Sequence record: PQ287649.1
Length of the DNA stretch: 64,000 nucleotides
Direction: 5' to 3' (one strand)
DNA from: Pseudomonas phage HHBS47_1
The notes below the pieces were generated by a model. That model saw only the letters and a program-made list of their open reading frames with translations, did not search any database and was not told where the DNA came from. Shown in pieces: positions 45,260 through 63,751 of this stretch (position 1 is its first letter; every line of letters begins with the position of its first letter). Made by a program: the position numbers and the translations under genes.

Positions 45260-46345
45260 ATGCTTCCAATGGACAGTGTTGTACTTACCGAAGAAGACGG
45301 TAATGGCTATGAAATCCCAGATCTCCCTCATATCGGGATTGTGTATGATGCGCTCAACGATACCCTGGATCAAGTGGATCGGGGCGTTGCAGGCACGGAA
45401 AGCCTGACTGCCTCCCAACAGTACCTGGTGGGTGTACTCAGTGCGAACCGACCTGGTTACTCGGTGACCGGTAACGAAGGCTTTATGGCCAATATCGGTG
45501 CAGGTCTTAAAGCCGCGTATGAGTACGTGGTGAAGATGTTCAAGAGTCTCTGGGACTTCTTCTTCAAGCGGGATGTGTCTCAGAAGACCTCGGATGCTAA
45601 GAAGGAGATTGATGACCTCCAGACAAAACTGGAGGTGGTTCAGACCGGGGGTAAGACGGAAGCGGAAACCCAGGAAGCCCTGCACTCCATGAAGGCCCAG
45701 GTTAAGGAACAGGCCCAATCTAGCTTTAAGATCGACGGGGTAGACGCAGAAGAATGGGTGGAGAAACAGGCGAAGACTTCTGCTACCCATGAAGAGAAGA
45801 AAGCCGCGGTTAAGACCCTGGCTCGAGAGCTTCCCAAGGTCAACACTCGGGGTAAGAAACGCCTCCAAGGTGTCATTGAGCGGATGATCAAAACCCAGCA
45901 ATATTTGGTCAGTGTGATTGATGTCGCTGATAAAGAAGCCCGAGAAACCCTGAATGAAAACCTCATGCGGGTAACGGACTCCATGAAACTCCTCCGCACC
46001 AATGTTCATCAGTCTACCGAGCAGCTGAGTCGAGTGAAAGACGTTAAAGACCTGACGGCTGTTCACAACGTCATGAACGGTGTTATTAAAGAGATCGATA
46101 CCTTTAAGAATGCTGCTCAGGCTGTACAGAGTGTTCGCAGCAAAATGGCTGACATGATTAAGACCGTCGAACAGCAATTGGCTGAGGTGGCTAAAGGTGG
46201 AGGTGATACCAAAGCGACTCAAGCAGCGCTGGATGAACTCCGCAAGATCATGAACTTCCTGGTTAAATGCGGTAAATGTATTACTAACATCATTGAAGAC
46301 AGTGTGAAGCTCCAGAAAGCCTTTAATGGTGTCTTCGGGCTGTAA
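45260..46345 (+). CDS. Paralogous-family protein A (virion-internal-like) with a conserved TGNE|GF site
   Basis: SVTGNEGFMANIGAGLKAAYEYVVKMFKSLWDFFF aligns with the same segment in the genes at 50103, 61321 and 62705. RBS aagga. Confidence 0.55.
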   Translation: MLPMDSVVLTEEDGNGYEIPDLPHIGIVYDALNDTLDQVDRGVAGTESLTASQQYLVGVLSANRPGYSVTGNEGFMANIGAGLKAAYEYVVKMFKSLWDFFFKRDVSQKTSDAKKEIDDLQTKLEVVQTGGKTEAETQEALHSMKAQVKEQAQSSFKIDGVDAEEWVEKQAKTSATHEEKKAAVKTLARELPKVNTRGKKRLQGVIERMIKTQQYLVSVIDVADKEARETLNENLMRVTDSMKLLRTNVHQSTEQLSRVKDVKDLTAVHNVMNGVIKEIDTFKNAAQAVQSVRSKMADMIKTVEQQLAEVAKGGGDTKATQAALDELRKIMNFLVKCGKCITNIIEDSVKLQKAFNGVFGL

Positions 46346-46356
46346 CCCTGGTAACC

Positions 46357-46400
46357 CTTACTACCCCTCTCCCCGTGAAGGGAGAGGGGTAGTAAGGTCT
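46357..46400. terminator. Bidirectional stem-loop between convergent genes
   Basis: ccttactacccctctccc-cgtgaa-gggagaggggtagtaagg. Confidence 0.5.
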
Positions 46401-46401
46401 A

Positions 46402-48207
46402 TTATGCGGTGTCTCGCACAGGTTCTTCCGTATCGATGTTAATACGAGATTTACGGTTACGAGCGTTCGCTTGCATTTCCTTAAGCAGTTCCTCTCGACC
46501 TGTTTCCACCATTAACCGTTCAAACTCATCCTTCAATTGATCTAATTGAGGGAATCTAAACAAATCATGGCATAATCCAATAGCGTTCGCTTCTGCACTG
46601 CTCGCAAAGTTCACCCCAATCTGTCTGAACTTATTGCCGTCAGCGCCTTGAATCCGAAACACTTCCATTTGTGTGGTACGATTCCCGACGTTCAATGCCA
46701 AGGTCGCGTGAGGGTACGCGCCTTCAACATCGATATCGGATGAATCTGTACGCCCGGTACTATACACATCAGCGAGTCCGTGGAAGAGCGGAGCACCGAC
46801 ATCCGCATTCTTCTCGGTATCGAGTAATGCAATCCAGTTTGACAACGGAGGTAGTTTATCAATAATGGATTGATCGCGTTTACGAGGGGTACTCCCCCAC
46901 ACAAACCCATACCGGCGTGCAAAGAAACTCAAGGTATCACTGACCAACTTGGGTTGAGAGACGTAGTTAAAATATTCTGAATACTTCAACAACATAGGAA
47001 GTGACAATGACAAGTCATTGGTCTTCTCATTGATCTCTTCAATAACGAAGTCATCCCCAATGTTGTACATGCAATACAGATACGGCCATTTCCGTTGCAT
47101 GTAACGGTGCCACTGAGGCGTACCCGGTCGGATATGAGCACCTTCTTCGGTATACAGTTTACCCGGTACGTTCACATGCTTCGCTGCTCCTTCTAACGAA
47201 ACATCAGGAAGTTTACCTTCAGACGGTTGACGCTTAATGCAGAAGAACGACATCGCGTCTAACCATTGCCAGGTGGCCATGGTTCGAACAGTGGGCCATT
47301 TCTCTTGAGGTTCCAAGGGCATTTTAGAACCGTCTTCCTTGACTTTGTGGGTTCTCCCTAAGTTCAGCTCGTAATACCGAAATTCCTTAGGAATACTGGG
47401 ATCGCAATACACATCCTCCAATCGATACCCTTCATTCCTAAGGGCTTCCTCATTCTTGGTCATGTCGTATTCAGCATTCCAACTGGCGACCCAGTCCGGT
47501 TGCCATTCGTGCATCTTGTTGATACACGCCACCACCACTTGACCTGGGGTATCAAAGAGTTCGTATTGAACCACACACTGACGCCGTTTAAGGTGTTCAC
47601 TCAACCACTTGCCTTCAGCGTCTTTAAGGTGCTTAAGAATCGTGGCGTCATCCGGTTCTTTAAACCAACTCCGTACGGCTGCAAAATACGCCTTACGCTT
47701 CATGGTAACCGAGGCCATCATAATGGGGTTACCGGGAGCATCCATGTCGGTTTCAACGTCGTACGCTGCTACGGTAAAGGGTTCCTTCTCCTGATGTTCT
47801 CCATATTTCTTAAAGAACTGGTGTTTAATGTGCACCGGAGGGGTTTGGTCTAAGCCGAAGACGTAAGGACTTTCTTTAGCTTCCGCTAGACTGGCTTTAT
47901 AATCTGCTCGTCCATAGAGCTGTTTAATCACATTAAAGGCAATCTGTGCCCGGGGAGCCTTGTACTCCCGACACCAGGATTCTTCAATGTAATCTTTATG
48001 CTGTTTGTACTTCCGTTTGTTCTCTTTAACAATGTAGTACGGTTGCTTATAATCCTTAATCGAAATAAACGATTGACTTCGACCACCATCTTCATGAATA
48101 TTGGTGATCTTTACACACGTTAAATCACTGCCCCTGTTGAACCTGCTGACCGAGTAATTACTGTGTTTGCAGACTTTAGCGACAATGGGTGAAGTATTCT
48201 CGACCAT
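46402..48207 (-). CDS. DEDDy 3'-5' exonuclease domain protein, possibly the N-terminal part of a split family-B DNA polymerase
   Basis: Exo I is FTVAAYDVETDMD, Exo II is SWNAEYDMT, and Exo III is YCMYNIGDDF. The C-terminal DIDVEGAYPHATLALN resembles PolB motif A (DxxSLYPS). No motif B or C follows before the stop. Confidence 0.55.
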   Translation of the reverse strand: MVENTSPIVAKVCKHSNYSVSRFNRGSDLTCVKITNIHEDGGRSQSFISIKDYKQPYYIVKENKRKYKQHKDYIEESWCREYKAPRAQIAFNVIKQLYGRADYKASLAEAKESPYVFGLDQTPPVHIKHQFFKKYGEHQEKEPFTVAAYDVETDMDAPGNPIMMASVTMKRKAYFAAVRSWFKEPDDATILKHLKDAEGKWLSEHLKRRQCVVQYELFDTPGQVVVACINKMHEWQPDWVASWNAEYDMTKNEEALRNEGYRLEDVYCDPSIPKEFRYYELNLGRTHKVKEDGSKMPLEPQEKWPTVRTMATWQWLDAMSFFCIKRQPSEGKLPDVSLEGAAKHVNVPGKLYTEEGAHIRPGTPQWHRYMQRKWPYLYCMYNIGDDFVIEEINEKTNDLSLSLPMLLKYSEYFNYVSQPKLVSDTLSFFARRYGFVWGSTPRKRDQSIIDKLPPLSNWIALLDTEKNADVGAPLFHGLADVYSTGRTDSSDIDVEGAYPHATLALNVGNRTTQMEVFRIQGADGNKFRQIGVNFASSAEANAIGLCHDLFRFPQLDQLKDEFERLMVETGREELLKEMQANARNRKSRINIDTEEPVRDTA

Positions 48208-62577: not shown

Positions 62578-62608
62578 GGTCGAGTGTTAGGATCTATTCC
62601 TAGAGGTA

Positions 62609-62652
62609 CTACAGGTAGGGGGATCTCCCCCTACCTGTAGCCTTTATGTCGC
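62609..62652 (+). terminator. Rho-independent terminator
   Basis: ctacaggtaggggga-tct-ccccctacctgtag, followed by cctttatgtcg. Confidence 0.6.
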
Positions 62653-62704
62653 AATACTGTAATTTCGATGCTATGTACTCAACTTGACTATTAGGTTGTT
62701 AACG

Positions 62705-63751
62705 ATGAATACGCATCCTGTAGCGCCCCTCCGATACGTGAATTCACCGACGGTGTATGAAGAGTATGAGGAGGATAGGGAGGGTTATAATCTAGTCAAC
62801 GACGAAACGACTATGGTTGCACTCTCCAGAGAGAACGACAAGATCAGTGGATTAGAAAGTGTCTACAACTACGTTCTCCACCGACATCAGAATCGGTTGA
62901 CTGCTTCGACCGGTACTGAGGGGTTTATTGATTCCGTTAAACACGGTATCAGTAAACTCATTCAAGTGGTTAAGGATTTCTTTAAGTGGATTTGGAGTTT
63001 CTTTGGGACCAAAGGGAAAGCCCTGAAAGACAAAGGAGATGAACTGGAGGTCGCTCTTAAAGCCAATGGTGTACGGGAGGATGACATTCCGTATCCCAAA
63101 GCCGCCTTTTATATCTTCCCTAAAACGACCAAGTTACCGTCGAATGTGGCGTGGGTGGGTAGCGTCATCGGGGATATTGAGCGTGGGATTAAGACGATTG
63201 AACGGTACAGTGCAAGTGTGGGGAACTTCTGTAAGGAATTAGGTCGTCTGATTGACCATTCGAAATACGCAGAATTCACCACCAAACAGAAGGCCTTCTA
63301 CCAAGAGGTTAAGGGTCTGTTAGGAGTGAACGCGAACCAGGAAGCCACCCTGGTGGTTAAAGATGACCTGGTCGTGGGTAAGAACACCGTGGAAGTGACG
63401 ATTAACCTGACGCGGGGGCTGGGTGTCCTGTCGGCTGATCGAGTGAAGAACGCGACCTTTAAGACTAATGTTTCGCAGGTGCGCGAACTCCTGGCCAAGC
63501 ACAATCGTCTAACAGAATCCCTCAAGGACATGAACACTAAAGTCCATTCGTTGGAGAATGACTTTGTAACGGCGCTAATGGCAAGTTTGGACGTTAAAGA
63601 GGCGTCTCCTGAAGCTCAGGCTGCCATTAAGGAGATGAAAGCCGTGATTCGTAAAGCCATGGCGAGTCTTAAAGTCATGGAGACGGAAGTGTATCGGAGT
63701 GCTAACGCTGTTTACGCGGTGTTGGAAGCCGCTGTGAAGAGAAGGAGCTAA
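62705..63751 (+). CDS. Paralogous-family protein C (STGTE|GFIDSVKHGISKLIQVVKDFFKWIWSFF)
   Basis: ATG at 62705. The track start at 62684 is TTG. Confidence 0.5.
   Translation: MNTHPVAPLRYVNSPTVYEEYEEDREGYNLVNDETTMVALSRENDKISGLESVYNYVLHRHQNRLTASTGTEGFIDSVKHGISKLIQVVKDFFKWIWSFFGTKGKALKDKGDELEVALKANGVREDDIPYPKAAFYIFPKTTKLPSNVAWVGSVIGDIERGIKTIERYSASVGNFCKELGRLIDHSKYAEFTTKQKAFYQEVKGLLGVNANQEATLVVKDDLVVGKNTVEVTINLTRGLGVLSADRVKNATFKTNVSQVRELLAKHNRLTESLKDMNTKVHSLENDFVTALMASLDVKEASPEAQAAIKEMKAVIRKAMASLKVMETEVYRSANAVYAVLEAAVKRRS

Follow-up and report, generated by a model that had tools for sequence, protein, structure and literature searches.

Internal head proteins of Pfam family PF12699 (phiKZ_IP) have been described in the phages phiKZ, 201phi2-1, SPN3US and Goslar, in which this 'paralog family A' is present in a variable number of paralogs whose propeptides carry multiple sites and are cleaved after Glu by a gp21-like protease (PMC5694885, PMC10052503, PMC9026906, PMC11297242, bioRxiv 10.64898/2026.04.21.720040). 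The role of the abundant PF12699 proteins in chimalliviruses and related jumbo phages is still called an open question (bioRxiv 10.64898/2026.04.21.720040). Here we analysed six genes located between positions 45260 and 63751 of a 64,000-nucleotide stretch from Pseudomonas phage HHBS47_1 (PQ287649.1; hereafter the window). We consider it highly probable that they code for proteins internal to the head of an EL-like jumbo phage, namely the 'inner body' or ejection paralogs gp61, gp63 and probably gp62, together with the diverged gp50, gp54 and gp64 and with one more member, gp165, encoded elsewhere, and that all are made as precursors cut at a G-x-E site.

The phiKZ proteins gp92-97, gp162 and gp163, processed by the protease gp175, belong to the same Pfam family as gp61 and gp63 and map to the same syntenic block. 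As in EL, the phiKZ inner body comprises several paralogs per genome, one of which is encoded far off (gp162/163 in phiKZ, gp165 in EL), and these have long N-terminal propeptides with several x-x-Glu sites and a helix-rich domain that is cut from the N-terminal region. The two sets of paralogs do not correspond one-to-one, P3 (the first residue of the triplet ending in the P1 Glu) is almost exclusively Gly in EL and relatives whereas phiKZ has S/A-x-E without other determinant (PMC9026906), and the EL lineage has a conserved G/S-F at P1'-P2' that was not reported for phiKZ. SPN3US gp53 and gp54, cut by gp245, are also PF12699 proteins with the same block position as in EL; their acidic propeptides of 125-137 residues, with several sites, are followed by an aromatic amphipathic helix and both proteins are very abundant, but SPN3US has two members against six or seven module-bearing genes in EL, and Ala instead of Gly at P3. 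Goslar gp53-58 are tandem paralogs of the PF12699 fold, one of them dominant (gp58) and several recognisable by predicted fold only, a situation that resembles that of gp63 among the EL paralogs, although host and genus differ and the likeness is drawn from the published description (bioRxiv 10.64898/2026.04.21.720040). The T4 proteins IPI-III and Alt, cut by gp21, follow the same logic, in that a targeting propeptide at the N-terminus is cleaved off after the Glu of a three-residue motif and the mature protein is kept with the DNA and injected. However, T4 targeting sequences have 10-19 residues, an L/I-x-E motif and an S77 protease, against 42-131 residues, G-x-E and S80 in EL, with no sequence relation, and the T4 proteins are a functional analogy, not members of the family.

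Genes are named after their homologs in EL, whose genome (NC_007623) was used as reference. The segments 45260-52000 and 58900-63800 matched EL and close relatives over the full queries with 96.6-99.6% identity (megablast), and the window corresponds to about 12.4-76.4 kb of EL. The six genes, all on the plus strand, are gp50 (45260..46345), gp54 (50103..51620), gp61 (58946..60241), gp62 (60255..61268), gp63 (61321..62577) and gp64 (62705..63751). RefSeq gives the label 'virion structural protein' to gp54 and gp61, 'internal head protein' to gp63 and 'hypothetical protein' to gp50, gp62 and gp64. EL gp51-63, SPN3US gp44-54 and phiKZ gp83-97 correspond gene for gene in order, strand and sizes, the EL block running through gp51 (DNA polymerase, minus strand), gp52-54, gp56 and gp57 (minus strand), gp58-60 and gp61-64, with gp50 directly upstream of this conserved head-gene block and gp165 remote from it. 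The syntenic head modules, the RefSeq labels and the PF12699 matches given below support the proposal of a preliminary description of this DNA that the products are virion-internal proteins. Its proposal of an expansion by tandem duplication applies in part, as gp61-64 are in tandem, but gp54 and gp50 are separated from these by other head genes and gp165 lies about 90 kb off. The order gp61-62-63-64 is kept on metagenomic EL-like contigs, each gene with its own ortholog (37-64% identity), and each paralog also has its own orthologs in other phages (30-60% identity). Because the paralogs share the motif only and each has its own orthologs, the duplications are ancient and do not represent a recent expansion.

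Sequence relationships among the paralogs

Four of the six proteins share a motif around the putative cleavage site (arrow), which reads VTGNE73↓GFMANIGAGLKAAYEYVVKMFKSLWDFFFK in gp50, VMGAE86↓GFISTITEGFKKFIEGIIKYIKMAFKW in gp54, VTGVE131↓AFMDTVKNAGKKAAEFIKAIFNTVINFFVGLF in gp63 and STGTE72↓GFIDSVKHGISKLIQVVKDFFKWIWSFF in gp64; the strings of gp61 and gp62 are AGCE108↓SFLSDFFK and EGSE42↓AL, respectively. BLASTP alignments between pairs of the six were found among gp50, gp54, gp63 and gp64 and were confined to 28-37 residues around the motif. When a 52-residue profile (-12 to +40 about the Glu-Gly bond) was built from three of these four core members and searched against the 434 six-frame open reading frames (ORFs) of the window with at least 50 residues, the omitted member was always the top non-training match (E 5.6e-8, 2.2e-6, 7.6e-6 and 2.9e-8), with the next ORF at E of at least 0.17. 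The motif that the preliminary description had noticed in these four genes is thus statistically supported. Its extension to the genes at 58946 and 60255 fared less evenly, as neither gp61 nor gp62 was recovered by the core-motif profile among the window ORFs (E at least 17); gp61 is a full-length PF12699 protein and gp62 a probable diverged member, and the inclusion of both follows from Pfam and ortholog conservation, not from the motif profile.

The genome-wide motif search that had been called for was carried out with the four-member profile against 1053 ORFs that span the EL reference genome except for 4 kb covered by the window. It returned the four core members and gp165 (E 1.7e-13), a gene located beyond the window that had played no part in training; beyond these five, none of the 1053 ORFs scored below E 0.29. 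gp165, a 351-residue 'hypothetical protein' (EL reference 166529-167584, minus strand), has the full module, with VMGTE↓G upstream and VAGNE↓GFLSSIGEGIKKAWEYIKNLFKSIF, and a weak PF12699 match over residues 73-129. Among 1.84 billion cluster representatives, 197 proteins of about 290-520 residues matched the motif, always near the N-terminus. No PF12699 match was found in 113 of 138 motif-bearing representatives and the bodies of 140 motif-bearing proteins fell into 24 BLAST clusters, the best-conserved part of these proteins being the cleavage site together with the first mature helix.

Evaluated against the PF12699 gathering score of 27 bits, gp61 (165 bits, E 3.6e-48) and gp63 (166 bits, E 1.7e-48) matched the family end to end, gp62 fell under the cut-off (24.4 bits, E 2.1e-5), and gp50, gp54 and gp64 had no match at E ≤ 1. 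Orthologs were retrieved from a 5.8-billion-protein collection for gp54 (40), gp64 (15) and gp50 (32), the gp63 set being taken from the representative search. At E ≤ 0.1, PF12699 was matched by 9 of 28 gp54 orthologs (best E 7.9e-9) and weakly by 4 of 14 gp64 orthologs, and gp64 itself matched PHROG 5750, an 'internal head protein' family (E 1.4e-5). In profile-profile comparisons (hhalign; probability, E-value and aligned columns), the gp63 family was linked to those of gp64 (94.4%, E 8.9e-8, 117 columns) and gp54 (93.7%, E 1.9e-7, 81 columns, with both sites aligned), the gp50 family to those of gp64 (96.4%, E 1.3e-9, 84 columns) and gp54 (95.7%, E 9.4e-9, 141 columns), and the gp64 family to that of gp54 (61%, E 7.9e-5, 141 columns), while the weak match between the gp61 and gp63 families (E 0.004) had both sites in register. 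These links and the PF12699 matches of the orthologs therefore identify gp54 and gp64 as diverged PF12699 relatives, and gp50 appears to be tied in mainly via its N-terminal module and via gp54 and gp64. BLAST comparisons between the EL, phiKZ and SPN3US family members gave no cross-genus match, and the gp54 and gp63 family profiles searched against all PDB chains gave chance coiled-coil matches only (E at least 0.02), with the phiKZ capsid chains gp86 and gp93 undetected.

The position of gp54 is that of phiKZ gp86, a cleaved capsid-lining, vertex-binding protein (PMC11297242), and of SPN3US gp47, a cleaved essential ejection protein (PMC5694885), all three lying after the gp84/85 and gp45/46 homologs and before two minus-strand genes. 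Both counterparts are cut by the head protease and their mature parts open with a hydrophobic or amphipathic helix. phiKZ gp86 matched PF25617 (516 bits) and, weakly, PF12699 over its N-terminal residues 25-150 (E 0.0022), and its alignment with gp54 coincides with the site (ISQE↓AV on MGAE↓GF, E 0.0025); gp54 had no match to PF25617 (PhiKZ_gp86) at E ≤ 1, and its family had no similarity to SPN3US gp47 despite the shared position (hhalign, E 0.09). By its position and by this weak alignment, which is limited to the module, gp54 is a probable counterpart of phiKZ gp86, and a capsid-lining protein seems to have the processing module in common with those of the inner body. Since phiKZ gp86 is a vertex protein that lines the capsid, the set extends beyond an 'inner body'.

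The conserved glutamate as a candidate cleavage site

When gp63 was aligned with 137 motif-bearing cluster representatives, the P1 Glu was the sole invariant column, with the P3 Gly and an upstream G-x-E nearly so. Conserved [GSA]-x-E triplets occur in the acidic N-terminal part, at E47 and E73 in the gp50 family, E49 and E86 in that of gp54, E43, E51 and E72 in that of gp64, and E11, E76, E114 and E131 in that of gp63, in which 8 of the 11 invariant columns belong to the four G..E pairs. The lone [GSA]-x-E conserved in a mature part is an S/A-x-E at E104, present in 12 of 14 gp64-family orthologs and absent from EL. The reference genome encodes, outside the window, an annotated 'head maturation protease' (gp192) that matched PF20034 (Peptidase_S80) with E 3.4e-74. 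Also outside the window, the EL major capsid protein gp78 has seven G-x-E within residues 1-170 (E35, 51, 70, 120, 131, 153 and 169), including TGNE↓SF, GGQE↓GF, EGAE↓GF and EGAE↓AL, where about 0.7 was estimated by chance (~10-fold enrichment). The capsid proteins of phiKZ and SPN3US have long N-terminal propeptides that are removed. The sites in gp78 suggest that the EL capsid propeptide may likewise be cut repeatedly, and that the EL protease may have a Gly-specific preference at P3.

Maturation cuts mapped by mass spectrometry (MS) in SPN3US include AQE125↓GWKETLKDLFERF in gp53, a bond cut in vivo and in vitro, and ARE137↓SLWDDIKAFLQRIFDW in gp54 (PMC10052503), and gp47 is cut at ALE↓SWANAGKVGLVVLIM (PMC5694885, PMC10052503). 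All three cuts follow a small-x-Glu triplet and precede a small residue, an aromatic one and a hydrophobic or amphipathic helix, and several sites per propeptide are described for both phiKZ and SPN3US (PMC9026906, PMC10052503). By hhalign, G-V-E131↓A-F of gp63 fell on A-Q-E125↓G-W of SPN3US gp53 and L-G-A-E114↓S on L-A-R-E↓S, an alignment that is weak (E 0.0014, probability 17%) though in register. The gp63 family also aligned across the site with the putative site SLE156↓DLKEKLKEAGKKALEIIKK of phiKZ gp93 (83%, E 8.5e-6). Among 332 ORFs from the phiKZ and SPN3US regions, the top four for the EL-type motif profile were phiKZ gp97, SPN3US gp54, phiKZ gp95 and phiKZ gp93, with E-values of 0.09-0.2 that are not significant, the ranking alone being informative; the match in SPN3US gp54 falls at the MS-mapped ARE137↓SLW. 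The head protease thus very probably cuts the EL precursors at the conserved G-x-E before the amphipathic helix. That the G/S/A-x-E position is of the head-protease type, as had been proposed beforehand, finds comparative support in the conservation of P1 and P3, the clustering near N-termini, the alignment with SPN3US gp53 and the S80 gene.

Assuming a cut at the last G-x-E of each protein, the propeptide and mature part would have 42 and 295 residues in gp62 (mature 32.3 kDa, isoelectric point (pI) 7.2), 72 and 276 in gp64 (30.6 kDa, pI 9.4), 73 and 288 in gp50 (32.2 kDa, pI 9.2), 86 and 419 in gp54 (47.5 kDa, pI 7.2), 108 and 323 in gp61 (36.5 kDa, pI 5.2) and 131 and 287 in gp63 (30.6 kDa, pI 9.7, against 44.7 kDa uncut). 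The propeptides have a pI of 4.1-4.9 and a net charge of -6 to -25, and the mature length across database matches has a median of 279 residues (interquartile range 267-291). The first 40 mature residues are net positive in five of the six proteins (+2 to +5; gp61, -2) and contain 6-8 aromatic residues, also in five of six, against a background of 3.7. In helical hydrophobic moment, the 18-mers following the site rank in the 98.6-99.8th percentile among the large ORFs of the window, and the maximal Kyte-Doolittle mean stays below 1.0 in five proteins, gp63 having a 19-mer at 1.61 (99.8th percentile). In phage genomes of distant genera (Aeromonas, Vibrio and OBP-type phages), just residues 77-172 of gp63 are conserved (tblastn), that is, from the residue after G-L-E76 to the end of the post-cleavage helix. 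Residues 14-84 of phiKZ gp93, from one cleavage site on, form a cementing fibre on the inner capsid surface, with the helix-rich domain released (PMC11297242); by analogy, the conserved segment 77-131 of gp63 could be capsid-bound.

The weakness of the alignment with SPN3US gp53 is one of several points that weigh against our interpretation. The residue frequencies at the site, which was located in 142 proteins (P3 Gly in 140, P2 free, P1' Gly in 113 or Ser in 26, P2' Phe in 113 or aliphatic), are partly circular at P3, P1' and P2' because the proteins were selected with a profile containing those residues. None of 25 gp50 orthologs matched PF12699 at E ≤ 0.1, and the link between the gp50 and gp63 families is limited to 37 columns of the motif (91.6%, E 8.4e-7). 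No profile (motif hidden Markov model or hhalign) connected the gp62 site with the motif, and the AlphaFold2 model of gp54 is poor (predicted local distance difference test (pLDDT) 55, predicted template modelling score (pTM) 0.39), without Foldseek matches in the PDB below E 0.058.

The conserved Glu could instead be structural, with G-x-E-G-F-helix as the opening core helix of a helical domain that the proteins have in common and that is not cut at this point and is processed, if at all, elsewhere. The gp50 model, in which the motif leads straight into a 51-residue helix of an all-helical fold, agrees with such a role, and homologous domains would naturally share their best-conserved helix. 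What is invariant, however, is exactly the Gly at P3 and the Glu at P1, with variation at P2 (N, T, M, V, Q and others), which is the signature of a protease site and not of helix packing; the additional invariant G-x-E lie in an otherwise poorly conserved acidic leader, the partially conserved E104 being the only one in a mature part, G-x-E is enriched about 10-fold in the N-terminal region of the capsid protein, and cleavage of the equivalent SPN3US gp53 bond occurs both in vivo and in vitro (PMC10052503). We therefore regard a purely structural Glu as very unlikely. It is even harder to credit that the hydrophobic stretch is the signal anchor or transmembrane segment of ordinary, non-virion membrane proteins, as the 19-mer of gp63 and a weak match of gp54 of the tape-measure/DUF2523 type might indicate: an acidic leader precedes the segment, which is 42-131 residues away from the N-terminus, the maximal Kyte-Doolittle means are below 1.0 in all but gp63, and PF12699 is a documented virion family. 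This reading was rejected on hydropathy and position.

A further possibility accepts the cut and assigns it another purpose, the exposure of a membrane-active N-terminal helix that is masked by the acidic propeptide and that, after ejection, would remodel inner-membrane lipid into the early-infection vesicle. The high hydrophobic moments and many aromatics of the post-site helices, their net positive charge in five of six behind propeptides of -6 to -25, and the hydrophobic 19-mer of gp63 are compatible with this function; in addition, the mature fragment of the essential SPN3US ejection protein gp47 opens with a transmembrane segment (PMC5694885) and phiKZ gp93, once injected, purifies together with membrane proteins and co-localises with a lipid dye (bioRxiv 10.1101/2024.03.24.586471). 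Yet an amphipathic aromatic face is equally expected of a helix buried in a bundle, the Foldseek matches of the gp50 model to alpha-pore-forming toxins lack significance (E 0.15-0.29, template modelling (TM) score at most 0.25), phiKZ gp86, with the same module, is a fixed capsid-lining protein (PMC11297242), and the post-site segment of gp61 has a net charge of -2, so that we hold this purpose to be unlikely. The same low probability attaches to its broader formulation, in which the unit under strongest selection would be a portable module, 'acidic propeptide - G-x-E↓G-F - basic aromatic amphipathic helix', mounted on bodies unconnected by BLAST, the capsid-lining vertex type included, and serving the maturation-triggered unmasking of a membrane-active helix for the early-infection vesicle. 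If true, adenovirus protein VI or the nodavirus gamma peptides would have an analogue in phages.

gp63, the other precursors and neighbouring genes

The sites of gp63 at E11, E76, E114 and E131 are all invariant, and its cleavage module (61678..61833, plus strand) has the P1 Glu131 codon at 61711-61713. The extreme codon bias and acidic leader ascribed earlier to the gene at 61321 were both confirmed. Its effective number of codons (Nc), 30.7, is the lowest of 33 EL genes, below those of the nuclear shell protein chimallin (33.4) and the capsid protein (34.2), the other paralogs having values of 47-55. The acidic helical leader (residues 12-76; 61354..61548, plus strand), bounded by G-M-E11 and G-L-E76, comprises 65 residues of which 42% are Asp or Glu, with a net charge of -25 and weak coiled-coil-type Pfam matches. 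In RisingSun, the gp63 ortholog was second in abundance after the capsid protein by MS of crude phage lysate (PMC6034870), and it is 41% identical to gp63 (tblastn). SPN3US gp53 and gp54 are dominant proteins with >600 copies (PMC5694885), as is Goslar gp58 with ~2150 (bioRxiv 10.64898/2026.04.21.720040), and the 30.6 kDa of mature gp63 match the ~31 kDa of mature SPN3US gp53 and gp54 (PMC5694885). The codon bias, the RisingSun lysate data and the parallels with SPN3US and Goslar thus make gp63 very likely the bulk, high-copy internal protein of the EL head.

The gp63 stop is followed after 32 nt by a perfect, G+C-rich hairpin of 14 bp (62609-62640, plus strand; CTACAGGTAGGGGG-ATCT-CCCCCTACCTGTAG, then CCTTTATGT), which suggests a terminator-like or transcript-stabilising element. 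An antisense ORF of 424 residues (61297-62571, minus strand) spans all of gp63 and is most likely a by-product of its third-position C/G bias (G+C content at third codon positions 0.70), not a gene.

gp50 would be the precursor of an all-helical head-type protein, with invariant G-x-E at E47 and E73. Its cleavage module (residues 62-113; 45443..45598, plus strand) has the P1 Glu73 codon at 45476-45478, and G45/E47, G71-N72-E73, F75 and F100-102 are invariant in the family alignment, as is FFF-x-RD. The AlphaFold2 model (pLDDT 86.7, pTM 0.84) is all alpha, with the site just before the 51-residue helix. Its Foldseek neighbours in BFVD are uncharacterised proteins, several paralogs per genome, from Joad, RisingSun, Miami and similar phages, with no annotated PF12699 protein among them, and no PDB structure was matched by Foldseek below E 0.023 (TM score at most 0.25). 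The alpha-pore-forming toxins to which the model had been compared (AhlB, SmhB and XaxA) were not used as evidence. The true start is probably M4, at the ATG at 45269 and not at 45260, because the orthologs begin with MD(E/S)V. The C-terminus of the gp50 family (…V/I-F-G-L/G/A, with F359 and G360; 46330-46345) is invariant in 25 sequences, the preceding 250 residues being poorly conserved, and gp62 ends in a similar way (GVLGVFA).

In gp54, G-x-E occurs at E49 and E86, with G47/E49 and G84/E86/G87 invariant in orthologs; the cleavage module spans 50325..50480 (plus strand), with the P1 Glu86 codon at 50358-50360. A weak match of the tape-measure/DUF2523 type is the one mentioned above. The gp61 sites at E87 and E108 (codon 59267-59269), the latter followed by SFLSDFFK, are kept in three IMG/VR orthologs, and orthologs conserve AGCE↓(S/N/G)FL.DFFK. 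In gp62, probably a diverged member, G-S-E42↓A (codon 60378-60380) precedes the conserved stretch GLFSVSKWVGGKA, and its G-x-E site is kept in orthologs, displaced in one. gp64 has G-x-E at E51 and E72 and a cleavage module at 62885..63040 (plus strand; P1 Glu72 codon 62918-62920); VKDFFKWIWSFF is invariant among its orthologs despite ~32% overall identity. The RefSeq start of EL gp64, equivalent to 62813 (312 residues), is 36 codons too late; the true start is at 62705, because 13 orthologs conserve the 36 upstream residues (MNGQSVAPLRY...).

Two neighbours carry similar triplets. gp52 (48292-49653) has VAGTE15↓F, whose position resembles that of the SPN3US gp45 propeptide (ASE-20), and gp58 (56440-57534) has SGLE126↓A, resembling in position the 127-residue propeptide of SPN3US gp50 (PMC5694885, PMC10052503); both are likely further protease substrates within the window. 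The gp54 ATG (50103) overlaps the end of gp53 by 8 nt (stop at 50110), and the start of gp59 is the last base of the gp58 stop codon (57534). These overlaps suggest translational coupling within the head module.

Proposed maturation pathway and implications

From the homology, synteny, site conservation, protease gene and codon bias observed here, we infer a course of events in which cleavage in EL, targeting by the propeptide, copy number in the virion and ejection are the predicted parts. Each protein would first be produced in a precursor form whose acidic N-terminal propeptide (42-131 residues, pI about 4-5), by analogy with the T4 capsid-targeting sequences and the SPN3US propeptides, may bring it into the prohead core. 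The S80 prohead protease gp192, homologous to phiKZ gp175 and SPN3US gp245, would then cut after the Glu of G-x-E. With two to four sites per propeptide, the latter would be chopped, and inner pieces may remain on the capsid wall. The last cut would fall immediately before the aromatic-rich amphipathic helix, net positive, which would become the new N-terminus, leaving a mature alpha-helical protein of ~280-420 residues (pI 9.2-9.7 for gp50, gp63 and gp64) to stay in the head with the DNA.

No new mechanism is added to the published system. Beyond it, the same module is recognised, at the level of sequence, in gp50, gp54, gp64 and gp165, and more weakly in gp62. The EL lineage is given a site logo of its own, G-x-E↓(G/S)-F, where phiKZ has S/A-x-E and SPN3US A-x-E, and seven probable substrates of the head protease, of which gp50, gp62, gp64 and gp165 had been annotated as hypothetical only. 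EL-like phages serve in Pseudomonas phage-therapy research, and their annotation would be improved.

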